Origin: Lytechinus pictus
Taxonomy: Eukaryota
NCBI RefSeq assembly: GCF_037042905.1
Contig: NC_087251.1
Span: forward strand, 42,782,001 to 42,846,000
Length of the DNA stretch: 64,000 bases
Reading direction: 5' to 3'
The notes under the pieces are model-generated. The model was not told where the DNA came from and ran no database searches. It saw nothing but the letters and a program-made list of their open reading frames with translations. Numbering within the stretch: the first letter of the stretch is position 1; each line of letters begins with the position of its first letter. The position numbers were made by a program, and so were the translations under genes. Shown here one piece after another: positions 3,138-59,444 of the stretch.

Positions 3138-3418
3138 CGACGTTCTGTCCGGGGGTCAATTCTCACGCTATATATTTCACCAAATGTATACATATGAAGA
3201 AAAAGGCGAATAATATAATCAGGGGTGGCGGAGCAAATTTAAAAGTGGGAGGGGCACGGAGAAAATGGGGGTACTTCCTCTTTTGAAAAGTAACAATTTA
3301 AAAAGAAAATAGTCTACTATCTACCCCAGTGGCATAATGAGGCAAAAGTTTTGAGGGGAGCAGACTTGGTGTACGAATTTTTCTAAGCTGCGAGCAAGCA
3401 AATGTTGGCATAATTGTA

Positions 3419-4800
3419 CTTGATGCCCCCAGGGGACATCAACGTTTTTACCTTTTGGTACTCCTTGATTTCCCGATGATTCTTCGTTACCAAAATGTAA
3501 ACATTTCTTTTCTCACTATAAAAAAAAATAGAAAGTAGTTCTGGTTTGCGCTAGCGCACCCCATATGAGATGCGAGTACAAATGCGCAAACAGGTGCATC
3601 TAGATGAGCGCGCATCCTTGCCTCCTCATCTATCCTCTTATATTACTTGCACTTGATGCCCCCAAAATTGATGAAAGCAGTGATCCGGCGAGTAATCCTA
3701 GAAGTGTTGACAAAATTAACCTTGATAGCTAGATAATAAACTCTCTATTATTACTTGTACTTGATGCCCCCAAATTTTCTTTTTCTATTTTCTAGCCGCG
3801 CAAGCCTTCATAACATCGTCGAAACGAATTAACCTTGTTGGCTAAATTAACCTTGATAGCTAGAGAATAATCTCTCTATTATTTGCACTTGATGCCCCCA
3901 AAAATTTCAACAAAATTAACATTGTAGCCAAAATTAACCTTGTTGGCAAAATTAACCTTGAGAGCTAATGTAACCTTGAGAGCTATAGCTCGTCTCTCTT
4001 ATATTACTTGCACTTGATGCCCCCCAAAATTTCAACAAAATTAACCTTGTAGCCAAAATTAACCTTGTTGGCAAAATTAACCTTGATAGCTAATGTAACC
4101 TTGAGTCGAGAGCTAAAGCTCGTCTCTCTTATATTACTTGTACTTGATGCCCCCAAAAATTTCAACAAAATTAACCTTGTAGCCAAAATTAACCTTGTTG
4201 GCAAAATTAACCTTGATAGCTAATGTAACCTTGAGAGCTAAAGCTCGTCTCTCTTATATTACTTGCACTTGATGCCCCCAAAAATTTCAACAAAATTAAC
4301 CTTGTAGCCAAAATTAACCTTGTTGGCAAAATTAACCTTGATAGCTAATGTAACCTTGAGAACTATAGCTCGTCTCTCTTATATTACTTGCACTTGATGC
4401 CCCCAAAAATTTCAACAAAATTAACCTTGTAGCCAAAATTAACCTTGTTGGCAAAATTAACCTTGATAGCTAATGTAACCTTGAGTCGAGAGCTAAAGCT
4501 CGTCTCTCTTATATTACTTGTACTTGATGCCCCCAAAAATTTCAACAAAATTAACCTTGTAGCCAAAATTAACCTTGTTGGCAAAATTAACCTTGATAGC
4601 TAATGTAACCTTGAGAGCTATAGCTCGTCTCTCTTATATTACTTGCACTTGATGCCCCCAATTACTTTATTTGTTGCGCGATCAACCAAACCACGCGCGG
4701 ATGGATATCAACTCGCCGATGATAAACAGGGTCGGGTACGTCGTCGGTCGAGGATCCACGAATCAAGGTAAAAAAGTTGATGTCCCCTGGGGGCATCAAG
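3419..4800. mobile_element. Nested TIR element with TA TSD carrying a 125-130-bp tandem array
   Basis: TIR CTTGATGCCCCCAGGGGACATCAAC..TTTTACCTT at both ends; TA at 3417-3418 and 4801-4802. Confidence 0.85.
3880..4660. repeat. Tandem array of 125/130-bp units with 380-bp higher-order period
   Basis: Unit TATTACTTGCACTTGATGCCCCC...GCTCGTCTCTCTTA with internal AAAATTAACCTTG subrepeats. The near-identical spurious ORFs at 4004 and 4384 are exactly 380 bp apart. Confidence 0.95.
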
Positions 4801-6306
4801 TATGGCAGTGTGTCCAAACTTCGCGCGTGTCCATACTTCGCGGACGGTCCTTATCTCAAAAACTAGCCAATATCCTTAAAATCTGACATCATCAACGTGA
4901 AAAGCGACCTACAATTACCGTTTAATGAAAATTTCTTTAGGATGAGTTCAGTATTCATGAAAATATTGGCAAAAGATCGGCAAATTTGCCACCGCTAGCG
5001 CCCGTTTTGAAGAAATCACAAGCATCACGATATCACCATTTTGCAAGCAGAAGTCATCAAAAATGTGAGTTAAATGTGGTACTAACCGATTCCATAGCAT
5101 TTTGCCATCAATCTGATTTAATTTTTCACTTTTTGAACTTGAGTTTTTGTTTAAATCTCCACAAAAGCTTTGGTGCGCGAAGTTAGGTCACACTTTTCAG
5201 AACGGTTTTCCAGCACAGCCCGCATTCGCCGATCGGAATAGAATTTTGAGATCGCGATACCGGCGAAACCCCTTGACCTACTTTACATTTTCGTCCATGA
5301 TTTTATAGTTTACGATCTTGCCGTCAATGTGGTAACTATTTCTTTAATTGGTTTTGTATAAATTATGAATATTTTGTGAACAAAATTAAGCCTGATGAAT
5401 ATTTTTGAAAAGTGCGCGAAGTTTGGACACCCCATCATACAATTATGCCCAAATGTTGACATATTTTAATAAAAAATATTATTTGTGATATAAAGATTTT
5501 GACACAATTTTCAGAGAATAATATATGTCAAAAGGGGATTGTGTGCAAACAGATAACCCCCATGCCTAAGGTAGTGCAAGATGTTCTCGCATTAGATAAA
5601 AAAAAATCACGGTCCATGTTTACAATCAAAAAGTAAAATGTTGTTTAAATGTGGAACCAAACGGCGGCTCTCCTATTGTTTCGGCAAAAATTTGAACCAG
5701 TCACTTGGATCTGGCGGGCCCTATCGACTAGCCCTTTTGTACTGGCGGTACTAATCAGCTAGCCGTTTTGGACCGCCGGTACCCGGGCCAATTCTGCTAT
5801 GACACCGGCCTAGTCTGCTGCTCTGAGCTGCATGTGCAAACTGAATGGCTCGTGATATGATATCGAGGTGGTATCTCCGCTGCTTGTCACTGGCACTGAA
5901 ATCTTCAAATTCAAAATGCTTGAAGCGGGAGGATCTGAGATTGAGATGGATATTGTCATGCCTGCCATTGATGCGGAGCGACCAAATGGAGTGAAAAAGG
6001 TGTGAGATCCAGAAAAAATATTTTTGTATTATTTTTACAAGTTGGTGATGCCTGGGCTTGGCCTTGCTGGCCTGGGCTTGGGCATCGCCATCGGATTTGC
6101 CGTGAGTCTGCGGCAGCTGGCAGCCGCACTTTTTCAGTTTGGCGGGGTCCCCAGCCGGCCGGGCTTTGGTGCGTAGCGTCGCCGTGGGACTGAGCTGAGC
6201 TGAGCCTGGCTCTGCCTGGGGCACTGCACTGGGTAGTAAGGGTAGGCCTAACCCAGGGAGCTCCCGCCCGCTGTGCGGGCGGGAGCCCAGGGGCCAGGGC
6301 TTACCG

Positions 6307-6847: not shown

Positions 6848-7632
6848 ATGGATACAGAATACTTGGATACTATTATATTAAAACATGTATGGATATGAAT
6901 ACATGGATACGTGGATACTTGGATACTATTGGATACTTGGATACTTGGATACGTGGATACGCGGATACGTGGATACTTGGATACTATTGGAGACTTGGAT
7001 ACGTGGATACGGGGATACTTGGATACTGTTGGATACTTGGATACGTGGATACGCGGATACGTGGATACGTGGATACTTGGATACTATTGGATACTTGGAT
7101 ACGTGGATACGCGGATACGTGGATACGTGGATACGCGGATACTATTGGATACTTGGATACGCGGATACGTGGATACGCGGATACGTGGATACGTGGATAC
7201 TTGGATACTATTGGAGACTTGGATACTTGGATACTTGGATACGTGGATACGTGGATACGCGGATACGCGGATACGTGGATACGTGGATACTTGGATACTG
7301 TTGGATACTTGGATACTTGGATACGTGGATACGCGGATACGTGGATACTTAGATACTATTGGATACTTGGATACGTGGATACGTGGATACGTGGATACGC
7401 GGATACGTGGATACGTGGATACTTTGATACTATTGGATACTTGGATACTTGGATACGTGGATACGTGGATACGTGGATACTTGGATACTATTGGAGACTT
7501 GGATACTTGGATACGTGGATACGCGGATACGTGGATACGGGGATCTTATATACCTTTGGTTACATGGATACTTGGATACGCGGCTACGGGCACATGCCTA
7601 CATGAAAACTTAGATACATAGATACTTGGATA
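6848..7632 (+). repeat. 8-bp-unit minisatellite (GGATACGT/GGATACTT/GGATACGC)
   Basis: Directly visible array; it explains the three overlapping DTWIRGY ORFs. Confidence 0.97.
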
Positions 7633-14914: not shown

Positions 14915-15220
14915 TCCCGTATCCACAAACATTATCCCAGCTGCCCGTATCCTCGTATCCACGCATGGTATCCACGTATCCGCGTATCTTCGTATCCATG
15001 TATCCAGTTATCAGTACGGTAGTAGTATCCACGTATCCGCGTATCCACGTATCCTCGTATCCATGTATCCAGTTATCAGTACGGTAGTAGTATCCACGTA
15101 TCCACGTATCTTCGTATCCATGTATCCATTTATCAGTACGGTAGTAGTATCCACGTATCCCAGTATCCACGTATCCTCGTATCCATGTGTATCCACGTAT
15201 CTTAGTATCCATGTATCCGC
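14915..15220 (-). repeat. GGATAC minisatellite in inverted orientation (GTATCCAC)
   Basis: Same core unit as 6848-7632 on the opposite strand, with ~57-65-bp higher-order units containing TCAGTACGGTAGTA. Confidence 0.95.
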
Positions 15221-15830: not shown

Positions 15831-16979
15831 GTGAAGACGTACGCCTGTCCAACATGTGGAAAAACATTTTCATTTTCATGCAATCTGTTCCGACATGAAA
15901 AAAACATTCACAAGAAGTTTGTGAACTGCCAGGTTCCTGGTTGCCTTTTCAAGTGCAGCAGCAAACGAAAGTTGATTGGGCACATGGAATTATTGCATTT
16001 TAAAACTCTGGAAAAGGAGACATTGACATTTGCAAATCTGGAGGAGTTCTATAAGTGGAAACTTAGGGAAGAAGTCCAGAACTTTGTGTGCTTCACCAAG
16101 AAAAGAGGCGACATTAAAATGGCACGTTCTACCCATAGACACTATGTCTGTGCTCTCTCAAGAAGACTTGGATTTCAGAAAAATACAGACGGTAAGAAGG
16201 AGGTGTACTGCCCAGCTCGATTACTTTTGAAAGAGTCTCATGGTAATGGAACTGTAGAGGTCACTTATTATAAATCGCATTCCCATCCTTTATCCTACTC
16301 TGGGTCAAAGAATCTTCCCATGCCAGAGACCCTCCGTCACGAAATCAAAGAGAGGTTGAAAGCTGGTATGAACCCTGATAACATTATCTCCGAACTCCGG
16401 AAGATGCACAAATCCGAGCTTGCAGTAGCAATTGGGATATACAATCGTCTGCAGTCTGTAACAGCATCTCACATATCCAAAATACAGCGTATGATGATCA
16501 AGAAGGGCATGTTGGAAGAGGCAATCCCCCAAAACAAGCCTGGAGAGATGGGAGTACTGAGGATGATGGCAGAGGCAGACAAGGAAGGTGCAAGTCTCGT
16601 CGACGACATCAAACAAATGAATGATGGATTTGTTGTCTTTGATTGCGTGGTACAGGAGCAGATGGATGTTGTAAATCTTCCTGAAGAATCAACTACTATT
16701 CCTGGTGCAAACATCCTCATTCCTGATCCTGTGCTCCCAAAACCTAAAACGAAGCGGAAAAAGGTCAGACGGGGGAAGAATCCACCAGATGTAATAACTC
16801 CGTTCATTGTGAATCCAGAAGGTACTCAAAAGGGTGAATTGGACAGTGTACATGATTCACTCGATAAGGTCAAACTCTTACTCTCCAGTGGGCAAGTAAG
16901 AGAAACAGATCTAACAGGTATTCAGGAAAATCTACAAGGTATAATGAAAATCATAAACGGCAAACATAGGATTATGTAA
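15831..16979 (+). CDS. Terminal coding exon: two C2H2 zinc fingers plus Mutator/WRKY-GCM1-like DNA-binding domain (transposase-derived protein without DDE domain)
   Basis: 382 open codons directly after the acceptor TCCTTTCTAG. Fingers CPTC..HEKNIH and CQVPGC..HMELLH; FxNLEEFYKWK..YVC..CPARL..VEVTYYKSHSH module; LPMPETLRHEIKERLKAGM helix. AATAAA at 16978-16983. The upstream ATG exon was not identified. Confidence 0.8.
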   Translation: MKTYACPTCGKTFSFSCNLFRHEKNIHKKFVNCQVPGCLFKCSSKRKLIGHMELLHFKTLEKETLTFANLEEFYKWKLREEVQNFVCFTKKRGDIKMARSTHRHYVCALSRRLGFQKNTDGKKEVYCPARLLLKESHGNGTVEVTYYKSHSHPLSYSGSKNLPMPETLRHEIKERLKAGMNPDNIISELRKMHKSELAVAIGIYNRLQSVTASHISKIQRMMIKKGMLEEAIPQNKPGEMGVLRMMAEADKEGASLVDDIKQMNDGFVVFDCVVQEQMDVVNLPEESTTIPGANILIPDPVLPKPKTKRKKVRRGKNPPDVITPFIVNPEGTQKGELDSVHDSLDKVKLLLSSGQVRETDLTGIQENLQGIMKIINGKHRIM

Positions 16980-18346: not shown

Positions 18347-19380
18347 TTTTGTCTCGCCTGCATAGTAGTGGGAGACTATAGGTGTCGCTTTTCCGACGGC
18401 GGCATCGTCAACATTGAAATCTTAACCAAGGTTAAGTTTTTGAAATGTCCTCATAACCTAGAAATTATATGGAACTAATTCATGAAACTTGGACATAAGG
18501 GTAATCAAGTATTACTAAATATCCTGCCTGAGTTTCAGGTCACATGACTAAGGTCAACGGTCATTTAGGGTCAATGAACTTGGACCATGTTGGGGGAATC
18601 AATATCGAAGTCTTAACCAAGGTTAAGTTTTTAAAATGTTGTCATAACTTGGAAAGTATATGAACCTAGTTCATGAAACTTAGACATAAGGGTAATAGTG
18701 TATCACTTAACATCCTACCCGTGTTTCAGGTCACATTACCAAGGTCAAAGGTCACTTAGGGTCAACAAACTTTGACCATTTTGGGGGTATTTGTGGAATT
18801 GTCATAACTTTTAAAATATATGGATCTAGTTCATGAAACTTAGACATGAGAGCAATTAAGTATTCCTGAAAATCCTTTGCAAATTTCAGGTCACATGATC
18901 AAGGTCAAAGGTCATTCAGGGTCAACAAACTTTGATAATGCTGGGGGTAATTGTGGAATTGCCATCATAACTTTAAAAGTTATAGAGCTACTTCATGAAA
19001 CTTGGACATAAATAGTATGCATCCCTGAATATCATGTGCGCGTTTCAGGTCACATGACCGAGATCAAAGGTCATTTAAGGTCAATGAACTGTGGCCGTTT
19101 TGGGGGTATTTGTTGAATTGACATTATAATTTAGAAAGTTTATGGATCTACACATGTAGTTCATGAAACATAAGGGTAATCAAGTACCCGGTATGTTTTG
19201 CACATGTCTTAGGTCACATGATCATGGTCAAAGGTCATGTTGGGTCAATGGATATAGTATTTTATTATCATATTAGTGTTTTCTTTTGTGAATAATTATT
19301 CAATAGCTGTTTTCAAAGTCGGCATTGCTGCTATATCGAATCGCGTAATGCAGGCGAGACTGCCAGAGGCGTTCCACTTG
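18347..19380 (+). mobile_element. Helentron/HINE-like non-autonomous element with ~145-bp internal tandem repeats
   Basis: 5' TTTTGTCTCGCCTGCAT, (GGC)n, core repeats containing CAGGTCACATGACCAAGGTCAAAGGTCA, 3' ATGCAGGCGAGAC inverted repeat, TGCCAGAGGC and CTTG/TT end. Confidence 0.8.
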
Positions 19381-22123: not shown

Positions 22124-22595
22124 TTAAAGTATAGGCCTACGGTATAACGAGGGCAACACTAAACAAAGTCAACAGGACGAAACTAATAAAAACAGTGATC
22201 ACAAAGTAAAAGGACTGAGGGGGGGGCTGTGCAGGTGAGTGAGATTGAGATAGAGAGGGAAGGGGGCGATTAGGGAGACAGATTTGAGAGAAGAGAGAGG
22301 GGTAGGGGGATGAAAATGAAGAAAAGAAGTCCCCTTTTACCACTGGTCAATGGAAAACCGCCCTGTGGTACCCTTCAAAGCCGCGGATCCAGGATTGACT
22401 TTGTGCCTTTATTTAAAAATCGACAGATTGAGAAGAAAAAAGAAAAAAAAATCACTCCTAAATGGGCTCCCAAATAAATTAAAGTGATTTTCCAGACTGG
22501 GAATATTTATATCTCAATAATAGAGTAAAATTCACAGAGCAAGATGCTGAAAATTTGATCAAAATCAGATAAAAACTTAAGTTATTGAAGTTTAA

Positions 22596-23180
22596 AGGGG
22601 AATCCAGCCTTGGCCATAGAATGTTGTGTTGGGAAGGAGAAAAATCAATTAAAAAGTGGTGAAAGTTTGAAAGAAATCAGACAAGCAATAAGAAAGGTAT
22701 AGCTGCTTTAAAAGTGAGATCACTAATAGTACGTAGATTTCAAATTGGCAACTGGGTAAGTAAATTATGACAAGGGGCAAGGACAACTTTCCTATAGGCC
22801 ATGTACTTTATTATCAGGGATTTGTGGTTTTCTCCTAAGTACCCATTCCCCTGGGGCAGTATCTAAATATAACCCAGGTAGTATATTATTTAATGTCCTC
22901 ATGAAAGAAAAATATAATTTGAAATAAAACTTTTGGGAAAAATGACATTTTTAGCCGTATTGGAGTACATGGAAGAGTAGTCCTTGCCTTACATCACTAT
23001 GACATCCCATATGCGGCCAATTTGATGTCTCTTTGAGTATAGTGATTACCAATATTTACAATTTAAAAAATTCACAACTTTCTTGTTGTTTGTCCAATAT
23101 TGTTCAAACTTTCACCTATCAACTTGTCTGATTTTTCGTTTTCTTATAAAAACAAGTTTTTATTAGGGTTGGATTCCCCT
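22596..23180. mobile_element. Kolobok-like MITE nested in another repeat
   Basis: TTAA|AGGGGAATCCAGCC ... GGTTGGATTCCCCT|TTAA; a related fragment lies at about 45640-45850. Confidence 0.8.
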
Positions 23181-24256
23181 TTAAAGATTTGCATTATTCC
23201 GGTGAAACAGTTCTAGGTATGTCTTTATGAATATTCATTAGGTGGGCTGATAATGTCATATCCACACTTGTTCTTTTATATTTTATTATATGAAACTACG
23301 TTTATTCAAAAAATTTCTACCAAGAACAATTGGATTGACGACTGATGAAGTGCATTAGTTATTTAATGCCGCAACTTATTTCATCATGATGGAGACACAT
23401 CACTTACACGTGTATGAAAAAAATGAAACATGATTTCATGTATAACAAGAAAAAGGAAAGTGGGGATGTGACATCAGCCCACCTAATGAATATTCATGAT
23501 AATGTGCATATAACTTTTTTTTTTTTTTTTTTGGGGGGGGGTGGGTATAATTTTACGGTGGGACCGTGGGAGTCCACACCTCCTCCTCCCCCCCCCCTAG
23601 CCATGCATTCTTTGTTTTTATATATATTTTTTTTTCATTGGAATACTTCCATCGTTTGATTCTATAGATATAAAACGAAAAGTGGGAAGATCAGTAGTTG
23701 ATTCTCTTTAACAATAATGATGGCGCTCTTCAATTTAATTTCGCTGAACTGTAATTTGTGTGATACAAACGGTAGGCACTTATGATCCAAGTTTGAAAGG
23801 AGACTCGTAAAATGACGTCACTCTCGCCGATGAATATTCATTAGATCGTGGTCGTGCGTGTTCAATACACACTGCGTGCAGGCATGCAGATAGTTATATG
23901 CGAGGAACTTTGGCTCCAGAGACAAGTTGTCAAATAACGTGTGTGTGTGTGCGTGTGTGTATCATCGGCTGGTAGTATTCCATGCTGTCTAAGACTTCAA
24001 ACGCGTCGGAGAGAGTGCATGGCAATTCGGTAAAACGAAGTTTCCCATATAAAGAGATAATAAAATAACACTATGTACAGTACGTTGAGACGCATTAAAT
24101 GTCAGATCAGGGGAGGCAGGAGTACAATCAGGTTTTTTTTTAAAGGGAAGAATAGTGTAGAATAAAAGGTATTATATATATAGCCAAATGATCTATAGGT
24201 GAGGGAAGTGAACAATGATGTTTTTAAAAAAAGAATGAATATACCTTACCTGAATA

Positions 24257-27200
24257 TTATGGTGAAGCCAATTTAAAAGGAGGTGAGACAAGTTTCAATG
24301 GAGGTTTTAAAAAATAATAAACTGTATTATGGTGAAGCCAATTTAAAAGGAGGTGAGGCAAGATTCAATGGAGGTTTAAAAAAAAAAAAAAAAACTATAC
24401 TAAGAATTATGGTGAAGCCAATTTAAAAGGAGGTGAGGCAAGTTTCAATGGAGGTTTTTAAGAAGAATAAACTGTACTACAAATTATGGTGAAGCCAATT
24501 TAAAAGGAGGTGAGGCAAGTTTCAATTGAGGTTTTTAAAAAGAATAAACTGTACTACAAATTTAAAAGGAGGCGAGGCAAGTTTCAATGGAGGTTTTTAA
24601 AAAAGAATAAACTGTACTACAAATTATGGTGAAGCCAATTCAAAAGGAGGTGAGGCAAGTTTCAATGGAGGTTTTTAAAAAGAATAAACTGTACTACAAA
24701 TTATGGTGAAGCCAATTTAAAAGCCCAGGACCAAAATCCAGTTAAAAGCAATTAGGGCAAAACCAATTGAAAGCAGTTGGCCAACTGGTTTCAATAGGGA
24801 AATTGGAACAACTGGTTCCAATTGAAAACCAGTTGCCAATTGGTTCCAGTTAAAACCAATTGGTTCCAATTGAAAACCAGTTGCCAATTGGTTCCAGTTA
24901 AAACCAATTGGGCAACTGGAACCAGTTGGCAATTTGTGTCAATTGGTTCCAGTTGTTCCAATTTCCCTATTAAAACCAGTTGAATCCAATTGGAGGCAAC
25001 TGGTTTCAATTGGTTCCAGTTGAAACCAATTGAAGGCAACTGGTTTCAACTGGAACCAGTTGAAACCAATTGGTTTCCAACTGGATCCAATTGGAACTTC
25101 CAGTTGGAATGAACTTAATTAGTTACAAATTAATTAGCATTTGCACTAACTATTGCTCATGCCAACATAGAAGCAGTGTTATATGTCTATTAAAACCAAT
25201 GTAAAGGGCATTGATAGAATACAGACTTTCATATATATATAATTTATATGGAAGATCTTCAGATATATGTATTTTTATTTGATGCAATTTGGTAACAGTT
25301 AGTGGTGAACTAATTATCCTTTAATCTGTTTTAATTATAATCTATAACATTTATGAACATGGTTTTCACTGCAAAGTATTTTAAATACTTATCTTTAAAA
25401 AGTGTGGTACTTGAAATTGAAAAGAGAAAAATAGATACATTGTTAATGATGATGAATCTCATAAAACATTAATCTGTGCACACTGGTAGATGATATGCAA
25501 ATTAACTGGTTTCAATTGGATCCAGTTGGGTAACTGGAAAATTTCCAATTGGAAACCAATTGGAAATCATTTCCAGTTGCCCAACTGGTTCCAGTTTTAT
25601 TTCCAGTTACCCAACTGGTTCCAATTAGAATTCATTTCCAGTTACCCATCTTTCCAGTCAGAAGTCATCTCCAGTTACCCAATTGGTACCAGTTAGGATT
25701 TCCAGTTACACAACTACATGGTTCAAGTTAAGATTTCCAGTTACCCAACTGGTTCCAGTTAGAAATTATTTCCAGTTGGAAGTCATTTCCAGTTACCCAA
25801 CTGGTTCCAGTTAGGATTTCCAGTTACCCAACTGGTTCCAGTTAGGATTTCCAGTTGCCCAACTGGTTCCAGTTGGGATTTCCAGTTACTCAACTGGTTC
25901 CAGTTAGAAATCATTTCCAATTGGAAGTCATTTCCAGTTACCCAACTGGTTCCAGTTAGGATTTCCAGTTGCCCAACTGGTTCCAGTTGGGATTTCCAGT
26001 TACTCAACTGGTTCCAGTTAGAAATCATTTCCAATTGGAAGTCATTTCCAGTTACCCAACTGGTTCCAGTTAGGATTTCCAGTTGCCCAACTGGTTCCAG
26101 TTGGGATTTCCAGTTACTCAACTGGTTCCAGTTAGAAATCATTTCCAATTGGAAGTCATTTCCAGTTACCCAACTGGTTCCAGTTAGGATTTCCAGTTAC
26201 CCAACTGGTTCCAGTTAGGATTTCCAGTTGCCCAACTGGTTCCAGTTAGGATTTCCAGTTGCCCAACTGGTTCCAGTTGGGATTTCCAGTTACTCAACTG
26301 GTTCCAGTTAGAAATCATTTCCAATTGGAAGTCATTCCCAGTTACCCAACTGGTTGTAGTTAGGATTTCCGGTTGCCCAACTGGTTTCAATTGGTTTCAA
26401 ATGGAAATTGTTAAATTCAAGTTAAAACCAATTGAAACCAGTTAAAACCAATTGAAACCAATTGAAACCAGTTGGAAATCCAACTGGTTTCAATTGGATT
26501 TTGGTCCTGGGAGGAGGTGAGGCAAGTTTCAATTGAGGTTTTTAAAAAGAATAAACTGTACTACAAATTTAAAAGGAGGCGAGGCAAGTTTCAATGGAGG
26601 TTTTTTAAAAAGAATAAACTGTACTACAAATTATGGTGAAGCCAATTCAAAAGGATGTGAGGCAAGTTTCAATGGAGGTTTTTAAAAAAGAATAAACTGT
26701 ACTACAAATTATGGTGAAGCCAATTTAAAAGGAGGTGAGGCAAGTTTCAATGGAAGTTTTTAAAAAAGAATAAACTGTACTACAAATTTAAAAGAAGGCG
26801 ACGCAAGTGTCAATGGAGGTTTTTAAAAAGAATAAACTGTACTACAAATTTAAAAGGAGGCGAGGCAAGTTTCAATGGAGGTTTTTAAAAAGAAAAAACT
26901 GTACTACAAATTATGAAGCCAATTTAAAAGGAGGTGAGACAAGTTTCAATGGAGGTTTTTAAAAAGAATAAACTGTATTATGGTGAAGCCAATTTAAAAG
27001 GAGGCGACGCAAGTTTCAATAGAGGTTTTAAAAAAGAATAAACTGTACTACAAATTTAAAAGGAGGCGAGGCAAGTTTCAATGGAGGTTTTTAAAAAGAA
27101 TAAACTGTATTATGGTGAAGCCAGTTTAAAAGGAGGTGAGGCAAGTTTCAATGGAAGTTTTTAAAAAGAATAAACTGTATTATGGTGAAGCCAATTTAAA

Positions 27201-28850
27201 AGGAGGTGAGGCAAGATTCAATGGAGGTTTAAAAAAAAAAAAAAAACTATACTAAGAATTATGGTGAAGCCAATTTAAAAGGAGGTGAGGCAAGTTTCAA
27301 TTGAGGTTTTTAAAAAGAATAAACTGTACTACAAATTTAAAAGGAGGCGAGGCAAGTTTCAATGGAGGTTTTTAAAAAAGAATAAACTGTACTACAAATT
27401 ATGGTGAAGCCAATTCAAAAGGAGGTGAGGCAAGTTTCAATGGAGGTTTTTAAAAAAGAATAAACTGTACTACAAATTATGGTGAAGCCAATTCAAAAGG
27501 AGGTGAGGCAAGTTTCAATGGAGGTTGAAAAAAAAAACCGTATTATGGTGAAGCCAATTTAAAAGGAGGTGAGGCAAGTTTCAATGGAGGTTTTTAAAAA
27601 GAATAAACTGTACTACAAATTTAAAAGGAGGCGACGCAAGTTTCAATAGAGGTTTTTAAAAAGAATAAACTGTACTACAACTTATGGTGAAGCCAATTTA
27701 AAAGGAGGTGAGGCAAGTTTTAATGGAGGTTTTTAAAAAGAATAAACTGTACTAAGAATTGTGGTGAAGCCAATTTAAAAGGAGGTGAGGCAAGTTTCAA
27801 TGGAGGTTTTTAAAAAGAATAAACTGTATATGGTGAAGCCAATTTAAAAGGAGGTGAGGCAAGTTTCAATGGAGGTTTTTAAAAAGAATAAACTGTACTA
27901 CAAATTATGGTGAAGCCAATTTAAAAGGAGGTGAGGCAAGTTTCAATGGAAGTTTTTAAAAAAGAATAAACTGTACTACAAATTTAAAAGGAGGCGACGC
28001 AAGTGTCAATGGAGGTTTTTAAAAAGAATAAACTGTACTACAAATTTAAAAGGAGGCGAGGCAAGTTTCAATGGAGGTTTTTAAAAAGAAAAAACTGTAC
28101 TACAAATTATGAAGCCAATTTAAAAGGAGGTGAGACAAGTTTCAATGGAGGTTTTTAAAAAGAATAAACTGTATTATGGTGAAGCCAATTTAAAAGGAGG
28201 CGACGCAAGTTTCAATAGAGGTTTTAAAAAAGAATAAACTGTACTACAAATTTAAAAGGAGGCGAGGCAAGTTTCAATGGAGGTTTTTAAAAAGAAAAAA
28301 CTGTACTACAAATTATGAAGCCAATTTAAAAGGAGGTGAGGCAAGTTTCAATGGAGGTTTTTAAAAAGAATAAACTGTATTATGGTGAAGCCAATTTAAA
28401 AGGAGGTGAGGCAAGTTTCAATGGAGGTTTTTAAAAAGAATAAACTGTATTATGGTGAAGCCAGTTTAAAAGGAGGTGAGGCAAGTTTCAATGGAAGTTT
28501 TTAAAAAAGAATAAACTGTACTACAAATTTAAAAGGAGGCGACGCAAGTGACAATGGAGGTTTTTAAAAAGAAGAAACCGTACTACAAATTTAAAAGGAG
28601 GCGAGGCAAGTTTCAATGGAGGTTCTTAAAAAGAATAAACTGTACTACAAATTATGGTGAAGCCAATTTAAAAGGAGGTGAGGCAAGTTTCAATGGAGGT
28701 TTTTAAAAAGAATAAACTGTATTACAAATTATGGTGAAGCCAATTTAAAAGGAGGTGAGGCAATTAGTTAATGGAGGTTTTTTAAAAGAATAAACTGTAT
28801 TACAAGTTATGGTGAAGGCAATTTGAGAGGAGGTGAGGCATGTCTACAAT
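24257..28850 (+). repeat. Tandem array of ~60-77-bp units (left arm)
   Basis: Unit TATGGTGAAGCCAATTTAAAAGGAGGTGAGGCAAGTTTCAATGGAGGTTTTTAAAAAGAATAAACTGTACTACAAAT and its deletion variants; interrupted at 24724-26511. Confidence 0.97.
24724..26511. mobile_element. CACTA/EnSpm-like non-autonomous element inserted in the foldback array
   Basis: TIR CCCAGGACCAAAATCCA / TGGATTTTGGTCCTGGG; 2-bp AG duplication reconstructed from the host unit AAAAGGAGGTG; subterminal CAATTG/CCAGTT repeats; 31-bp units in 114-bp higher-order repeats. Confidence 0.85.
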
Positions 28851-30369
28851 GATTTTTTTTAAAGAATGATAAGTGTAGAATATAATTCAAATGATGAAGC
28901 AAGTTATGACATTTTAAAGTTTTGCTTAATTAAAAAAAACAGTTATATGCACATCCTGGTCTGTATGCACCTGAGGAGACTGATGACGTCATCCTCTCAC
29001 TATTTCTTTTGTATTTTATTATAGGAAATAAGAAATATTCTAAGTTTCTCCTTAATGTCAAGTGATACAACGATTAATTCCTCCCTGAACATGTGGAATT
29101 AGCTTTGTTTAATACTATATGGTTCAGTCAAGTAGTGGGATGATAATGATGATGAGGAACAGGGCGGGTATTCAATGCTACTCTTAAAGCCACAATTTCA
29201 AGTATATTTTACTCAGTATTTTGCAAAAGTAAAATACTTATCCATCTTTGGTATTCAATTGCATTTTTTTTTGGCTAAATATTTTGCTTAAATGTAAGTC
29301 AGCCATCTACTAGACTTAAGTCTACATATACAAAAATGATACGCACAGAAATACATTCACACATTTGGCACTATTTGGCTCAAAATTTATAACATCACAA
29401 TGGGTATTAGTATTTAGTTCAATTTGGATAAGGTAAATTCTGAGATCTGATCTGCATACAAGTTTAAGCATTTTGATAAGCCAGCCAAATTGCTAAGTAA
29501 AATACTTACAAAATCAAAACTTAGAATTTAATAGGCGGCCGAGGTATTATTTTCTTCCAGAGGACATGTACAGATTTCTTGTTGACAAAGGATGACATGA
29601 TGATTATTTTGCAAAACATGGCTTATTAAAAAATATATTATGTATATTCCATTTCAGTGACAATTGCATTTTTGGGGAGGGGATATTACGTATTTGGGAA
29701 TGGAAAAGTTCAAAATTAATGCAAACTTAACCTATTTACGCAGGGGGGGGGGGGGGGGGCTCTGAGCTCTGCGATTTAAAAAAAAAAGTCTTTTGCATGT
29801 TTTGAGACCAGTTTTGCGAAGCCCGGGTACTGGGTTCTGAAAATTACCAAACAATTTGTAAGTGCATATCAGACAAAAATGGCTCAAAATTGTGATATTT
29901 GTGTACCACGTCAATGGAATATGCGTTTTCAACCAAAATTCATGAATGCCTAATTGTTTTTAGTTTTGTTGAACTAAACTGATTTATTTTATGCTGTTAC
30001 GAGAGTCCGAGCATCGTTGAAAAAAAACAATGCAATACAAAGGTAAAAACACAAGAAATACACTATCGAAGAACACCACAAAGAGTTTCTAAACCAAAAA
30101 TTAGAACATTTGGAGCTTTATTTAGGGAGTTAGAGGAATAGGTATAGTATACTAATTATGCACAAATGAGCATAATCAATTAATAGCAATTTGCATGAAA
30201 TAAATAACTACACAATTTTGTGGATTATTAAAAGCAATTGCGATCTTTTTCTTCACTATTCATTGTTTTTAGAAACCTCATTGTAGACTTGCCTCATGCA
30301 CCTCTCAAGATGGCTTCATCATTTGAATTATATTCTACACTTATCATTCTTTAAAAAAAAATCATTGTA

Positions 30370-32200
30370 GACATGCCTCACCTCCTCTCAAATTGCCTTC
30401 ACCATAACTTGTAATACAGTTTATTCTTTTTAAAAACCTCCATTAACTAATTGCCTCACCTCCTTTTAAATTGGCTTCACCATAATTTGTAATACAGTTT
30501 ATTCTTTTTAAAAACCTCCATTGAAACTTGCCTCACCTCCTTTTAAATTGGCTTCACCATAATTTGTAGTACAGTTTATTCTTTTTAAAAACCTCCATTG
30601 AAACTTGCCTCGCCTCCTTTTAAATTTGTAGTACAGTTTATTCTTTTTAAAACCCTCCATTGACACTTGCGTCGCCTCCTTTTAAATTTGTAGTACAGTT
30701 TATTCTTTTTTAAAAACTTCCATTGAAACTTGCCTCACCTCCTTTTAAACTGGCTTCACCATAATACAGTTTATTCTTTTTAAAAACCTCCATTGAAACT
30801 TGCCTCACCTCCTTTTAAATTGGCTTCACCATAATACAGTTTATTCTTTTTAAAAACCTGCATTGAAACTTGCCTCACCTCCTTTTAAATTGGCTTCACC
30901 ATAATTTGTAGTACAGTTTATTCTTTTTAAAAACCTCCATTGAAACATGCCTCACCTCCTTTTAAATTGGCTTCACCATATACAGTTTATTCTTTTTAAA
31001 AACCTCCATTGAAACTTGCCTCACCTCCTTTTAAATTGGCTTCACCACAATTCTTAGTACAGTTTATTCTTTTTAAAAACCTCCATTAAAACTAATTGCC
31101 TCACCTCCTTTTAAATTGGCTTCACCATAATTTGTAGTACAGTTTATTAATTCTTTTTAAAAACCTCTATTGAAACTTGCGTCGCCTCCTTTTAAATTTG
31201 TAGTACAGTTTATTCTTTTTAAAAACCTCCATTGAAACTTGCCTCACCTCCTTTTAAACTGGCTTCACCATAATACAGTTTATTCTTTTTAAAAACCTCA
31301 ATTGAAACTTGCCTCACCTCCTTTTAAATTGGCTTCACCATAATACAGTTTATTTTTTTAAACCTCCATTGAAACTTGCCTCACCTCCTTTTGAATTGGC
31401 TTCACCATAATTTGTAGTACAGTTTATTCTTTTTTAAAAACCTCCATTGAAACTTGCCTCACCTCCTTTTAAATTGGCTTCACCATAATTTGTAGTACAG
31501 TTTATTCTTTTTAAAAACCTCTATTGAAACTTGCGTCGCCTCCTTTTAAATTTGTAGTACAGTTTATTCTTTTTAAAAACCTCCATTGAAACTTGCCTCA
31601 CCTCCTTTTAAACTGGCTTCACCATAATAGTTTATTCTTTTTAAAAACCTCAATTGAAACTTGCCTCACCTCCTTTTAAATTGGCTTCACCATAATACAG
31701 TTCATTTTTTTAAACCTCCATTGAAACTTGCCTCACCTCCTTTTGAATTGGCTTCACCATAATTTGTACTTATTCTTTTTTAAAAACCTCCATTGAAACT
31801 TGCCTCACCTCCTTTTGAATTGGCTTCACCATAATTTGTAGTACAGTTTATTCTTTTTTAAAAACCTCCATTGAAACTTGCCTCGCCTCCTTTTAAATTT
31901 GTAGTACAGTTTATTCTTTTTAAAAACCTCAATTGAAACTTGCCTCACCTCCTTTTAAATTGGCTTCACCATAATTTGTAGTACATGTATTCTTTTTAAA
32001 AACCTCCATTGAAACTTGCCTCACCTCCTTTTAAATTGGCTTCACCATAATTCTTAGTATAGTTTTTTTTTTTTTTTTAAACCTCAATTGAAACTTGCCT
32101 CACCTCCTTTTAAATTGGCTTCACCATAATACAGTTTATTATTTTTTTAAACCTCCATTGAAACTTGTCTCACCTCCTTTTAAATTGGCTTCACCATAAT
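30370..32200 (-). repeat. Tandem array of ~60-77-bp units (right arm)
   Basis: Reverse complement of the left-arm array. Confidence 0.97.
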
Positions 32201-33141
32201 ATTCAGGTAAGGTATATTCATTCTTTTTTTAAAAACATAATTGTTCACTTCCCTCATCTAGATCATTTGGCTATATATATATAATACCTTTTATTCTACA
32301 TTATTCTTCCCTTTAAAAAAAAACCTGATTGTACTCCTGCCTCCCCTGATCTGACATTTAATGCGTCTCAACGTACTGTACATAGTGTTATTTTATTATC
32401 TCTTTATATCGGAAACTTCGTTTTACCGAATTGCCATGCACTATCTCCGACGCGTTTGAAGTCTTAGACAGCATGGAATACTACCAGCCGATGGTACACA
32501 CACGCACACACACACACGTTATTTGACAACTTGTCTCTGGAGCTGGAGCCAAAGTTCCTCGCATATAACCAACTATCTGCATGCCTGCACGCAGTGTGTA
32601 TTGAACACGCACGACCACGATCTAATGAATATTCATCGGCGAGAGTGACGTCATTTTACGAGTCTCCTTTCAAACTTGGATCATAAGTGCCTATACCGAT
32701 ACAAACGCGTTGTATATCGCAGCGAAGACCCCATGCTTTCATGTCAGTCGTAACTGCACTACGTGTACGAGTACGCGTGTGTGATATGCATACAGCATGC
32801 AGGGAAGTGTTACAGATAGGTACAGATAATAATGCGGCGCGTTTGCGTGATCGAGTTTCAATGCAATGCAAGCCAATGCCATGGGATAGAGACGTGTCGT
32901 GGTTGGGAGATGACCTAGGCCCTAATTGGGTTTTTTATTAGCAGTTTCGAGCCTCAAGAGATTAGAAAGAGACCTTGCCAATCCAAGAGACAGAGGGCCC
33001 GTCAGGATTTAACGTTAACTTAAATTAAAGTTAATTTTAGCTTTGAACTGAATGAAGGCGAACTGCCGCTGCTGCGCTACTGAGGTCTGAGCCTCATTTC
33101 ACTTCTTCTCATGCATTTTTTGTGATCAGTGACCAGTCGTC

Positions 33142-33651
33142 ATGTTTAACAACTGGGAAAGGCCTCGGGGACCCGGCTTTGGTGGGCCTGGCGGTGGAGG
33201 CCCCGGCGGGCCAGGGAATATGCGGATGCAACACCAACGGATGCCGAACCGCCCTCCATTTCATGGACCAAGATCAGGACCCGGACCAATGTTTATGCGA
33301 GGGCCGTCTGGAAATGGGCCAGGCCCGCGCCCACATTCCATGGGAATGAGAATGCAAATGGACAACATGGGACCTCAAGGACAAGGACTGATGCCGGGGC
33401 CACGGAATTGGCACGGACCACCAGGTCCAGAACCTGGCATGCGCATGAGGATGAGGGGACCAGGACCAAGGCCACCTGGACCAAGAGGACCACCAATGAT
33501 GTCTGGCCCACATCATGGTCAAGGGCAAGGGCCTACAATTCCAGGACCAAGTCCCACAAGGCCAACACATATGTTGCCGGAGCCTGTTCAGGTGTTGGTC
33601 AAGCAAGCTGAAGCTGCTGAAGCCGCAGTTGGTATGCCGCAGACAACAGAG
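33142..33651 (+). CDS. YLPM1: YLPM1-like gene, coding exon 1 (G/P/M/R-rich)
   Basis: ATG, MFNNWERPRGPG...; donor GAG|GTCAGT, phase 0, joins in frame to exon 2. Confidence 0.8.
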
Positions 33652-34214
33652 GTCAGTTCTTTGTTTTCCCCACTCACATTTTAATTTCCTAAGAACTCAG
33701 ATAAATTAAGAGAAGATGTTATATATTTTTCAGTTCAGGGGTGGGGGAATAATAAGCATGAGTAGAATGGGGGGTCGGGTGTCCGGACACTTTATATTTT
33801 TGAAGCCTTATTTTTTGTCTTTGGATTACACTAAAAATATGAATTCAATACTTGTAATCATCTTCTATTTTGTTCTTTATAATATTTCCTAACATTTTGT
33901 ACTAAAAATTGATGAAACTTCGCTTGTAATTTTTTCCAAATGACTTTCTAAAATTGATCGTCCGGACACAACCTGTCCGGACACACAACAACTGGGTATA
34001 CATGTACTATTAGTACTGTAACTTGTGTGTCGAGATCGTAAGCCATGCCAGTAGACCCTGGGCTGAGAGAATAGAGGTAGATCCCACTACAGAGTAAGTC
34101 AGGGTGACCATATTTCACAAAATGAAATACTGGACAATCGACAAAGCACGCTGCATGAGCAGATCGACCGAGCCAGGTCTTAAAAGCTAGCCAAAGAAGG
34201 CTAGCTACACAATG

Positions 34215-34930: not shown

Positions 34931-36620
34931 AAACTTCAAGCAAACAAACAAAAATCCAATCATCTAACAAAAATCTTAATGATATTTGGTTTTTTTTTAA
35001 TATATTGAAAAAAAAAAAAAAAACTAAACTGTTTAGCACCACACACAGGCAATGGCATCTCTCATCCCATGACAAGTTCGCACCGATCACAACAAGACTC
35101 AAAACGGAAGCTGAAACATCTACAGTAGATCTAGTTTAATATGAAAACTCAATAATAGGCTTGCTCCTCCAATTACATCACCAAATCAGTAATCTGAGAA
35201 TCCATAATAAAACATAAAAATTTCCCTCCGATTTTGTGATTATTTTGATGGAAAAACTGTTGAGATTGTTTGCACCATTGAGAATCTGCTCCGATCCTAC
35301 CACACACATGCAGGAGGCCAGTGCAGGCCACGTGCATGCTGCAGCATGTTGCAGCAATAAATAATGCACTAAATCACTTGTCAATCCAAGGTTTCTAGTT
35401 CTTGGAGGAACAAAATTGAATAAACCCAATTTCATATAATAAAATACAAACGAACAAGTGGGGGTGTGACATCATCAGCCCACCTAATGAATATTCATGA
35501 TTTTTTCACAAAATATTGCTAAACTTAAAAATTCAATAACTTTGTTGTTTGTTATCCAATTTTGATGAAATTTTGGCATTTTGCTCAGTGAATTCTACTC
35601 TATTTATTAAGCTATAAATACTTTCAGCCCGGACCATCCCTTTAACTCCTCAAAACAGACAGCTGCCAGCTGTCTAAGCTCTGTAATGTACACATCATGT
35701 AAATTGTGATTGCTGCTTCTGTACATTTATTTTAATGGAGCTATTTTAGAATCTCTTTGTTATGGATTGGGTATTCCCATGCTGGCGGCATCTCTCCCAT
35801 CAGCAAAATTATATGAATTTTAGATTGTGTTCAAATTCGATTTTCAAATTTAAACAGCAACATAAAACGTGATTCAAAACTAAGAAATTTCATCAATAGG
35901 TAGAACAATTACACGGTCAGTGGTGCACTTTTCACGGTCAGAAAATGAAAGCCGAGTAATACTAGTAAAAGTTGTCTTTGAAATTCCCCATGCTCTTCAG
36001 TGCAGCTTACTGCGCACTTTCTGTTTGACCCATCACAAGAAAGATCAACTCGGCAGTGCGCATTTCAAAGTGTAAGCTCCCACTGCAATAAAGCACATTT
36101 AAAGACATTTGAAACCTCAAGTGTGTTCAACGTCACCTTTCGTTTCCGTGAAATTGTGAGTGCTTGGGGCAATTTCGGAAGAGTGCATTGTAAAATAGTA
36201 AATATTAATTATACTGGTACTAAATATTATGATGATGCACATTTTTTCGTTTATACATTTTTTTCCAAATACTCTCTTAAAGACATTGACTCTTTCAGTT
36301 TCAAGTAGGAATGGGGGACATTGCAAACACCCTTTGTTTCTGTGCATTTTGAATCATGATTAATCTTGACGTAAATTGCTTCAGCTCAGTGTTCCTGAAT
36401 GAAACATGTCAGACAGCACTGAAGCGCAAGTTCATGTAGCATTCAATTGACAGCCATGACTCTGCTTAAATTGTCTCCCCTACATAGCAAAAGCAAGACA
36501 TATGTACAGTGTACATGTATGTTTGTAGTAGTGCTGTTATCGTTAAGAAAATTCTCTGTCGATATATCGCTAAAAATATTTTACCGATAACTATCAGCAA
36601 AAGAACATAATCAATACTCA

Positions 36621-37356
36621 TTTTTGTCTCACCTGCGTAGCAGAGTGAGACTATAGGCGCTGCTTTTCCGACGGCGGCAGCGCGTCAACACCAAATCTTA
36701 ACCGAAGGTTAAGTTGTTTTAATGACAGCGTAACTTAGAAAGTATATGGACCTAGTTCATGAGTCTTGGACTGTGGACATAAGGTTAATCAAGTATTACT
36801 GAACATCCTGCCTGAGTTTCAGGTCACATGACCAAGGTCATTTATGGTCAATGAACTTTGGCCAAGTTGGAGGTATTTGTTGAATTACCATCATAACTTT
36901 GAAAGTTTTGGATCGTATTTATGAAACTTGGACCTAAGAGTAATCATGTACATGTATTACTGAACATCCTGTGCGAGTTTCAGGTCACATGATCAAGGTC
37001 AAATGTCATTTAAGGTCAATGAACTTTGGCCAAGTTGGGGATAATTGTTGAATTACCATCATAACTTTGATAGTTATTTGGTCTAGTCAAAAAAACTTAG
37101 ACATGTATCACTGAACATCCTGTGCAAGTTACAGGTCACATGACCAAGGTCAAAGGTCAAAGAACTTTGGCCATTTTGGGGTATCTGTTGAATTACCATC
37201 ATAACTTTGAAAGTTTATGGATCTGATTCATGAAACTTAGTCATTAGAGTAATCAAGTATCACTGCAAATCCTGTGTGAGTTTCAGGTCACATGACCAAG
37301 GTCAAAGGTCATTATGGTCAATGAACTTTGGCCCTGTTGGGGGTATTTGGTCAATT
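36621..37356 (+). mobile_element. Helentron/HINE-like family copy, 3' truncated
   Basis: 5' module plus about four core units, then an abrupt switch to a GCGTAACGGACATGACA-repeat sequence. Confidence 0.8.
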
Positions 37357-55620: not shown

Positions 55621-57586
55621 TTTTGTCTCGCCTGCATAGCAGAGCGAGACTATAGGCGCCACTTTTCCGACAGCGGCTTCGTCAACATTGAAATCTTTAA
55701 TAATCAATGTTAAGTTTTTGTCTCACCTGCATAGCAGAGTGAGACTATAGGCGCCGCTTTTCCGACAGCGGCGGCGGCGTCAACACCAAATCTTAACCTG
55801 AGGTTAAGTTTTTGAAATGACAGCATAACTTAGAAAGTATATGGACCTAGTTCATGAAACTTGGCCATAAGGTTAATCAAGTATTACTGAACATCCTGCC
55901 TGAGTTTCATGTCACATGACCAAGGTCAAAGGTCATTTAGGGTCAATGAACTTAGACCATGTTGGGGGAATCAACATCAAAATCTTAACCTAAGGTTAAG
56001 TTTTTGAAATGTCATCATAACTTAGAAAATATATGGACCTAGTTCATGAAACTTATACATAAGGTTAATCAAGTATCACTGAACATCCTGCATGAGTTTC
56101 ACGTCACATGACCAAGGTCAAAGGTCATTTAGGGTCAATGAACTTTGGCCGAATTGGGGGTATCTGTTGAATTACCATCATAACTTTGAAAGTTTATGGA
56201 TCTGATTCATGAAACTTGGACATAATAGTAATCAAGTATTACTGAACATCCTGTGCAAGTTTCAGGTCACATGATCAAGGTCAAAGGTCATTTAGGGTCA
56301 ATGAACTTTGGCCAAATTGGGGTATTTGTTGAATTACAGCCATAAATTTGAAAGTGTGTTGGTCTAGTTCATAAAACTTGGACATAATAGTAATCAAGTA
56401 TCACTGAACATCCTGTGCGAGTTTCAGGTCACATGATCAAGGTCAAAGGTCATGTAAGGTCAAAGAACTTTGGCCACGTTGGGGGTATTTGTTGAATTGC
56501 CATCATATCTCTATAAGTGTATTGGTCTAGTTCATAAAACGTGGAAATAAGAGTAACCAAGTATCACTGAACATCTTGTGCGAGTTATAGTAGTTTTCAA
56601 AATCAGCACTGCTGCTATATTGAATCGCGTGATGCAGGTGAGACGGCCAGAGGCATTCCACTTGTTTTAAATGTCATCATAACTTAGAAAGTATATGGGC
56701 CTAGTTCATGAAACTTGGACATAAGAGTAATCAAGTAGTACTGAACATCTTGCCTGAGTTTCAGGTCACATGACCAAGGTCAAAGGTCATTTAGGGTCAA
56801 TGAACTAAGACCATGTTGGGGGACTCGATATCGGAATCTTAACCAAGGTTTAGTTTTTGAAATGCCATCATAACTTAGAAAGTGTATGGACCTAGTTCAT
56901 AAAACTTAGACATAAGGGTAATAGTGTATCACTGAAGATTCTGCCTTAGTTTCAAGTCACATGATTAAGGTTAAAGGTCAGTTATGGTCAACGAACTTTG
57001 GCCATGTTGGGGTTATTTGAGGAATCATCATCATAACTTTTAAAAGTTTATGGATCTAGTTCATGAAACTTGGACATAAGGCAACCATGTATCCCTGAAT
57101 ATCATGTGCGAGTTTCAGGTCGCATGACCAAGGTCAAAGGTCACTTAGGGTCAATGAACTTTGGCCATGTTGGGGATATTTGAGGAATTGTCATCATAAA
57201 TTTAAAAGTTTATGGATCTAGTTCATGAAACTTGGACATAAAAGCAACAATGTATCCCTGAATACCCTGTGCGCATTTCAGGAACATGGCCAAGATCAAA
57301 GGTCATTTAAAGGTCAATGATCCCTGGCCGTGTTGGGAGTATGTGTTGAATTGGCATCATAACTTAGAAAGTTTATGGATCTAGCTCATGGAGCATCGAC
57401 ATAAGAGTAATCAAGTATAAATATGTCACATTGTCATGGTCAAAGGTCATTTTGGGTCAATAGACATAATATTTTATTATCATATTAGTGTTTTCTTCTG
57501 TGAATAATTATTCATTAGCTGTTTTTCAAAGGCAGCACTGCTGCTATATCGAAATGCAGGCGAGACTGCCAGAGGCATTCCACTTG
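55621..57586 (+). mobile_element. Helentron/HINE-like element with a same-family copy nested at ~55715-56664
   Basis: Two 5' modules (55621, 55715) and two 3' modules (ending 56664, 57586); the inner copy splits AAGTTTTT|AAATGTCATCATAAC of the outer copy. Confidence 0.85.
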
Positions 57587-58592
57587 TTTTATATTGCAGA
57601 TGATATGCCGCAGAGCAGTGCCTGCATAGACATGTCCAATTAAAAATATGGTGAAGGCTGTTTTATTCATTTGTGAATTTCAGCAATACCGGTATATCTA
57701 GGTGAATTTGCTCGAAATTGTGAAATGAACAAAGGTTATATAATCATTGACTGTAATAGTCGAATGATTAAACATTTCAAAAGACTTTGTTGACTAATAC
57801 TGTCTTTAATAAAATGATGCATGATGTGATGTGATATTGAAAAGAAATGATAAATGTATGGTATATTTTTTTCAAAATGAATTTTGTAGAACTGTTCCCC
57901 TTGGAAATTTCAGATACTGCTTGCCAAACAAATTTTTTATATGCTTTCTTCATAGTATTTTTACTGGCTCATACATGAAATTATAATATCTTGAGCTGCA
58001 GAAAATGAAGGAGGAGGGCCCAAACCTATCATTTGATAATTATAAATCAAGACTATGATCATTATCCTGATTATTAGTCATACTATTATGTTAGGTTTGA
58101 CGTGATATGTTTTATTGTCGCAAGTTTGGTTTTTAAATTTTTATTACACAGTTAAAACTATGTTAAAATTATCTACAAATGCTGTTCACTATATGAACCT
58201 TACAGTAGTTATTTAGTAATCATGTTTAATTTCTTGAAAATCAAATTAAAGTTTGTTGTTTCAGATTTTAAACTTTGTTCATATAGTAAGCAGCATTGTA
58301 TAAAAGTTTTAAGCGTTTTTAATGTGTAAATCAGAACACTAACCATTTTATTGATCTATATTGACTGTAATACCAGACATTTTATGGAGGTCATTTTACT
58401 TATTTTTGTGTGCAAATATTCTTCATCGCCCGTTAATAATTGTATTAGATAATCTTTATTTTGTTAACTATTACAACTGTAGTATTTTCCGAACTCGAAT
58501 TTTGGGTCATGATGGTATCAAATCTAAAAAATGCTTTATATGCTTAGCTTACAAAGATTTTGTTTTAAAATGGCAATATATTATATTTCATA

Positions 58593-59442: not shown

Positions 59443-59444
59443 TT

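Follow-up and report, generated by a model that had tools for sequence, protein, structure and literature searches.

Most foldback transposons are of the Mutator type according to the description of Tetris, an element of Drosophila virilis that is built from flanking, tandem, and inner domains, has target-site duplications (TSDs) of 8-10 bp, and was itself assigned to Mutator on the size of these duplications (PMC4079207). The Rehavkus elements of Tribolium carry terminal inverted repeats (TIRs) together with subterminal tandem repeats (PMC12581902), and the TSD of Rehavkus measures 9 bp (PMC6446971). Here, we describe an 8.9-kb element without genes that occupies positions 23771-32697 of a 64-kb stretch of contig NC_087251.1 from the sea urchin Lytechinus pictus (the whole stretch is hereafter called the window), and whose mirror-image arms contain a short tandem repeat. 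In our view, it is likely a copy of a cut-and-paste foldback that is non-autonomous, resembles Tetris in build, and most likely belongs to Mutator (MuDR/Rehavkus/Phantom).

The element is framed by the 9-mer GATACAAAC, which has exactly two occurrences in the window when both strands are considered, each of them flush against one element end. A chance match of all nine letters at a fixed position has a probability of 7e-6. A single duplication encloses both arms, as in foldbacks, and the other features of this class (long inverted repeats, internal tandem repeats, and modular domains) are also present, while the TIRs exceed the 100 bp used to recognise Mutator-type elements. No coding capacity was found in the element. 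The outer arms aligned with 477 matches, 6 mismatches, and 16 gap columns, confirming an earlier note on this DNA, which had reported near-identical outer sequences of ~490 bp. The same note called the element intact, which is too strong, as three private insertions of 2, 4, and 6 bp at the right end are absent from other copies. It also called it recent, which holds in a relative sense only, as a nested insertion, block duplications, and an arm divergence of ~1.2% have accumulated since. The two ends of the element disagree at positions 3-4 (GG-TAGGCAC on the left versus GGTATAGGCAC on the right), and the right terminus carries a private 2-bp duplication.

Inwards of the outer domains, the tandem arrays measure 2818 bp on the left, excluding the nested insert (40 anchor-split units), and 1850 bp on the right (26 units), which agrees with the unequal lengths of about 2.8 and 1.8 kb noted before. 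The complete units (39 left, 25 right) span 62-81 bp; the size first given for them, ~60-77 bp, was approximately right but not exact in its range. The order of the unit variants is mirrored at both array edges, as had been claimed: the first five unit pairs displayed 7 differences against a shuffle mean of 28.3, with 1 of 100000 shuffles as low, and the last seven pairs displayed 7 differences against a mean of 36.8, with 0 of 100000 shuffles as low. This likeness reaches through the arrays too. An order-preserving alignment paired 22 of the 25 right units with left units, 15 of these pairs showing no more than one difference, and the resulting score was attained neither by any of 300 shuffles nor by the reversed order. 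The poly-A unit variant occurs twice on the left (17 A at 24378 and 16 A at 27231) and once on the right, as poly-T (16 at 32063), just as previously counted. The ordered pairing across the arrays therefore indicates that both arms derive from one ordered array that was later altered by block duplication. Units 8-18 and 27-32, found only on the left, include a block of 374 bp that recurs with a single mismatch, and units 6, 7, and 13 are found only on the right. Changes by block duplication have likewise been reported for the arms of Galileo (PMC3573991) and Tetris (PMC4079207). The inner ~170 bp of the left outer domain consist of two decayed array units (local score 114 against a maximum of 63 in 300 shuffles), and a stretch at the loop edge also scored as a decayed array unit (70 against a shuffle maximum of 50). 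Therefore, the array expanded in place.

Evidence for other copies came from sequencing data. Four of 23 runs were aligned, to 32202-33800 only, and the loose ends and pieces described below are among the matches listed. Twelve raw X21 RNA reads from organism A leave the element past 32693 into mixed flanks that start with CC (agreement 0.6), and two X9 DNA contigs from organism B, 18 and 21, cease aligning at 32693. These exits and stops thus identify the left-arm form, GGTAGGCAC, as the end of the family. In the X1 and X2 contigs, neither the 6-base nor the 4-base insertion of the right arm is present, and these contigs revealed a relative diverging at 32359, which shows that the interiors of the family are variable. 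Meanwhile, summed contig depth in organism B reached 129258-161060 on the terminal ~110 bp, a measure that does not equate to copy number, against ~33 on the neighbouring exon; over most of the inner part of the outer domain it amounted to 300-2300. This shows that an abundant family has the same terminal ~110 bp. The proposal that non-autonomous elements of this foldback type form a family with further copies is thus strengthened by the X21 exits at the common terminus and by the pile-up in organism B, although no second full-length copy was seen among the matches listed. The suggestion that the family is undescribed may hold, as we found no publication on it in the literature searched, a scope that did not include Repbase and Dfam. 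Within the window, neither the outer domain nor the terminal 130 bp has a further copy, and the exact 21-base terminal pattern had 0 matches in JGI metagenomes, where host DNA seems absent. The terminal 130 nt folded no better than shuffled sequence (z 0.71). A palindrome-cored word of the terminal segment, ATGAATATTCATTAG at 23830-23844, recurs in an unrelated dispersed repeat nearby (23227-23241, 23483-23497, and 35484-35498).

The X9 contigs also bear on the state of the site before insertion. Record 22 from organism B aligns from 32698, the first base of the TSD, with 7 letters beyond it unaligned. An occupied site would lengthen this match by at least TACC, which suggests that the orthologous site of organism B is empty.

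A 16-bp subterminal motif is echoed in the array units, in the versions GCAAGTTTCAATGGAG and GCCAATTTAAAAGGAG, with a likeness that 0 of 1000 shuffles matched. Among real background windows, 5 of 497 scored as well (p about 0.01). When up to 3 mismatches were allowed, the motif had 57 occurrences in the arrays, all in the orientation of their own arm, and 0 in the 55055 bp outside; with up to 4 mismatches, the counts were 116 and 6, respectively. In Muta1, both binding and excision rise with the number of subterminal repeats, and mutations of the terminal motif lower excision (PMC5499845). In Tetris, 37 bp are common to the unit and the flanking domain, and the idea of a multiplied site has been proposed (PMC4079207). 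By analogy, our data lend modest support to the view that the arrays supply additional copies of a transposase site.

Several observations weigh against a Mutator-type foldback with a 9-bp TSD. The 16-bp motif was picked post hoc, its echo is modest given the background windows that score as well, and its array copies are not independent of each other. The case for an empty site comes from a single contig, without sight of its 7 unaligned letters, and among the matches listed no read or contig of organism A crosses the junction between element and flank. No transposase was found, and none was sought genome-wide. In addition, the length of the TSD is known from one copy. Because GATACAAAC starts with G and finishes with C, the duplication can be read as 9 bp (GG...CC ends), as 8 bp (unequal ends), or as 7 bp (ATACAAA, with CGG...CCG ends), and all partitions predict the same empty allele. 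Hence, the exact flanking duplication of a 9-mer described in the earlier note stands, while 9 bp as its sole reading does not.

This ambiguity leaves room for a different enzyme. The same foldback insertion, if it has CGG...CCG ends and a 7-bp ATACAAA duplication, could have been moved by a P-superfamily (Galileo-like) transposase or by a hAT transposase with 7-bp TSDs, an explanation that we regard as possible but rather unlikely. Partitions of 7 and 9 bp fit this copy equally well. Moreover, the X21 loose-end consensus starts with CCG, its third letter being the G that the 7-bp partition predicts, and X9 record 21 stays unbranched for three letters past 32693, so that both lean towards CGG ends. 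Nevertheless, the CCG signal may come from one locus that dominates the consensus, which was built from 12 reads, or from a G..C target preference, which gives the same signal. The ends of P-type elements start with CA and those of hAT elements with YA, which also argues against these enzymes. Galileo combines a foldback build and tandem repeats in its interior with TSDs of 7 bp (PMC3573991), and hAT families in Repbase are annotated with a 7-bp TSD (PMC4455052), but foldbacks are mostly Mutator-type, as stated above. TSD length is the chief uncertainty for classification, and we hold membership in Mutator to be likely, yet unproven.

It is very improbable that the element was not mobilised as one unit, with the second arm arising by local inverted duplication or conversion, or with two copies meeting head to head. 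The inner 548 bp of the right array are 99% complementary to 28316-28863 although the array middles differ, the interiors of the family are variable, as seen in the X1/X2 relative, and Galileo TIRs lengthen by recruiting internal sequence (PMC3573991), all of which would suit a local origin. However, the single exact duplication around both arms needs joint cutting of the ends, and two insertions would have left two duplications, none of which is present at the loop edges. An assembly artefact, either a fold-back chimera or a collapsed or expanded satellite, is hardly credible: although the array lengths are those of the assembly, each arm has private substitutions, indels, and unit orders, the arms are separated by a 1.4-kb loop, the nested element occurs on one side and has a TSD to itself, and an outer TSD is present; a chimera would yield none of these.

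The foldback sits just upstream of a host gene. The gene to its right matches the L. variegatus YLP motif-containing protein 1-like (YLPM1-like) over seven exons from the ATG at 33142, and a motif scan of the window detected none of the C-terminal exons of YLPM1; these lie beyond the window. Stranded X21 RNA reads extend over about 32800-33651, with splicing to 43431, X21 depth is zero at 32742-32795, and contigs start at 32732 (X1) and 32842 (X2). Between the element end and the 5'-most RNA coverage of this gene, which lies downstream of it, there are thus 26-140 bp. The observed/expected CpG ratio is 1.42 at 32700-32899, compared with 0.59 for the window, and the right arm contains TGACGTCA at 32646-32653, which we take to be a CRE-like word. 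The insertions at 32537, 32567, and 32694 are two exact tandem duplications (6 bp and 2 bp) and a 4-bp near-duplication; they fall within the outer 160 bp of this promoter-side arm, and the left arm has none. Clustered in this manner they look like excision footprints in open chromatin, but three one-sided events are within chance. In intron 1 of the YLPM1-like gene, a very abundant repeat starts at 33761-33800 (summed depth of 112482 in organism B, with many flanks). Its common form begins with GTAGG like the foldback, and its other end was not found. A more far-reaching scenario, which we deem decidedly improbable, would make the element part of an abundant, undescribed, non-Mutator lineage of echinoids with CGG ends and a 7-bp TSD, whose CpG-rich right arm now acts as the proximal promoter of the YLPM1-like gene, with the old upstream DNA cut off and an empty allele segregating.

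We propose the following history for this locus. As read from the sequence, a ~70-bp unit akin to the innermost part of the outer domain was amplified, and both arms had one ordered array in common. We infer that a transposase supplied in trans, whose identity would be that of a Mutator enzyme, bound the terminal ~110 bp, possibly aided by the dozens of degenerate copies of the 16-bp motif, and that it cut both ends, with staggered insertion giving rise to the duplication. Insertion near the YLPM1-like gene, into its promoter region rich in CpG, would have followed the split from organism B, a step that is partly visible in the data. Afterwards, the arms drifted by block duplications, presumably through slippage or unequal exchange, a CMC-type element entered unit 7 of the left array, and the right end gained short duplications; the order of these later events is recorded in the locus itself. 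Because an insertion lies within the right terminal motif, and mutations in the terminal motif of Muta1 lower excision, this copy is probably impaired for mobility, and the right-end duplications would probably hamper its remobilisation.

The loop between the arrays is non-coding, as the earlier note held: its longest stop-to-stop frame is 75 aa, and no Rfam match was obtained across 22500-34000. The element nested in the left array has TIRs that begin with CCC and is flanked by the 2-bp TSD AG (24722-24723 and 26512-26513), which stems from the array unit that it entered. It is non-coding except for repeat-derived frames of up to 151 aa, and its ends have no second copy in the window. We take it to be CMC/EnSpm-like, since a 2-bp TSD and CCC/CAC ends are features of this class; the literature searched offered nothing on CCC elements with 2-bp TSDs that would confirm the placement.

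Table 1. Features of the foldback insertion and its surroundings (positions within the window)
Feature	Position	Strand	Remarks
Left TSD copy	23762..23770	.	GATACAAAC; or 7-bp ATACAAA, 23763-23769, if ends are CGG
Left outer (flanking) domain	23771..24255	+	CpG-rich; family-type terminus GGTAGGCAC
Terminal ~110 bp, common to a much more abundant family of ends	23771..23880	+	mirror 32580-32693
16-bp subterminal motif CCAAGTTTGAAAGGAG	23787..23802	+	degenerate copies in array units; candidate transposase-binding site
Left tandem array	24256..28900	+	39 complete units and decayed last unit; nested element inside
Nested TIR element, 1788 bp	24724..26511	.	perfect 17-bp TIR CCCAGGACCAAAATCCA; internal CAACTGG/CCAATTGG arrays
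Non-coding loop, 1412 bp	28901..30312	.	dispersed-repeat fragment 28980-29133; decayed unit 30249-30308
Right tandem array, inverted	30313..32200	-	25 complete units and decayed inner unit
Right outer domain	32201..32697	-	private 2-, 4-, and 6-bp insertions near 32694, 32567, and 32537
Right TSD copy	32698..32706	.	organism B DNA contig aligns rightwards from exactly 32698
YLPM1-like first exon	32732..33651	+	5'-most coverage 32732-32850; ATG 33142; donor 33651 spliced to 43431

Other parts of the window also carry mobile or repetitive DNA. LOC129264384 (5916-6002 and 15831-16979, + strand) is a two-exon gene that encodes a 410-aa protein with C2H2 fingers, and the region after the fingers has language-model features near the N-termini of Mutator-like element (MULE)/ZSWIM transposases (0.89, a lead only). 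The protein is 100% identical to one recorded from L. pictus and has an S. purpuratus orthologue of the same length at 58%. Its length falls short of a full transposase, and it may be a DNA-binding protein domesticated from Mutator. This C2H2/MULE-like gene (15831-16979) was rejected as a source of transposase for the foldback, given the 410 aa of its protein and the 409 aa of that orthologue, the absence of a MULE hit in Pfam, and the absence of foldback-family TIRs around it. The 2043 bp at 3407-5449 have 13-bp inverted ends (GGCATAATTGTA..), a flanking 8-bp direct repeat (CAAATGTT), and a 125-bp tandem array (3827-4661), and are a probable further non-autonomous DNA transposon. The intron of this zinc-finger gene contains, ~7 kb apart at 6899-7632 and 14946-15218, two arrays in inverted orientation whose unit measures 8 bp (ATACGTGG / CGTATCCA); they are possibly another foldback-like element. 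A long interspersed nuclear element (LINE)-type open reading frame with an endonuclease domain occupies 58569-59573, with an apparent continuation at 63200-64000, and the LINE frames are separated by an inserted, decayed reverse-transcriptase element near 59900-61400. Finally, a dispersed family of ~160-190-bp tandem repeats with CAAGGTCAAAGGTCA is present at 18408-19150, 36793-37356, and 55780-57405.

The locus provides a clean case of a transposon that bears and reshapes a would-be satellite, in which the order of the unit variants logs which arm duplicated what. Its units echo the subterminal motif, as has been proposed for Tetris and shown for Muta1. Since the element lies no more than about 140 bp from where a conserved gene of a laboratory sea urchin starts, an allele-specific expression test would be easy, if an empty allele segregates. 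The ambiguity between 9 and 7 bp is a caution for the classing of non-coding elements on the evidence of one copy.

Compared with known systems, the TU elements of Strongylocentrotus purpuratus, for which PMC4079207 cites Liebermann et al. 1983, are also sea-urchin foldbacks with modular long inverted repeats. In TU, the tandem domain is reportedly outermost, with ~15-bp units, although this domain order was not found in the literature searched; here, the outer ~490 bp are non-tandem except for the two decayed units at their inner end. Galileo, of the P superfamily, differs in its terminal letters and in having a THAP transposase, which was not found here. It resembles our element in its long TIRs, in tandem repeats a few hundred bp inward, in arms that change independently, and, on one reading of our element, in its 7-bp TSD (PMC3573991). 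The MULEs Tm1/Phantom and Muta1 have composite TIRs, unequal repeat numbers per arm, and 8-10-bp TSDs (PMC3169594, PMC5499845), and the end motifs of Tm1, CGGTTAA and CCTACCC, resemble the (C)GGTAGG and CCTACC(G) found here (PMC3169594). Unlike in our element, where the repeats begin ~490 bp in, those of Tm1 and Muta1 are 12-15 bp long and start within ~10 bp of the end. Rehavkus shares the combination of a TIR with variable subterminal tandem repeats, the unequal arms, and, on the 9-bp reading of our element, the TSD (PMC12581902, PMC6446971); it is, however, defined by a PHD-finger transposase and listed from arthropods and annelids, whereas no transposase was found for the sea-urchin element. 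The closest likeness in build is to Tetris, with its unique outermost flanking domain, variable array, non-coding middle, absence of an open reading frame, and sequence shared between unit and flank (PMC4079207). Compared by description, the Tetris unit is ~220 bp against 62-81 bp here, and the inner domain of our element is just a decayed unit. The earlier note set the layout against that of TU, but a unique outer and a tandem inner part are not new as an arrangement, because this arrangement has been described for Tetris (PMC4079207) and for Tribolium Rehavkus (PMC12581902). The element is thus of an already known kind, to which our analysis adds its location close to a promoter, the damage to its right end, the echo of the motif in its units, and the ambiguity between a 9- and a 7-bp duplication.

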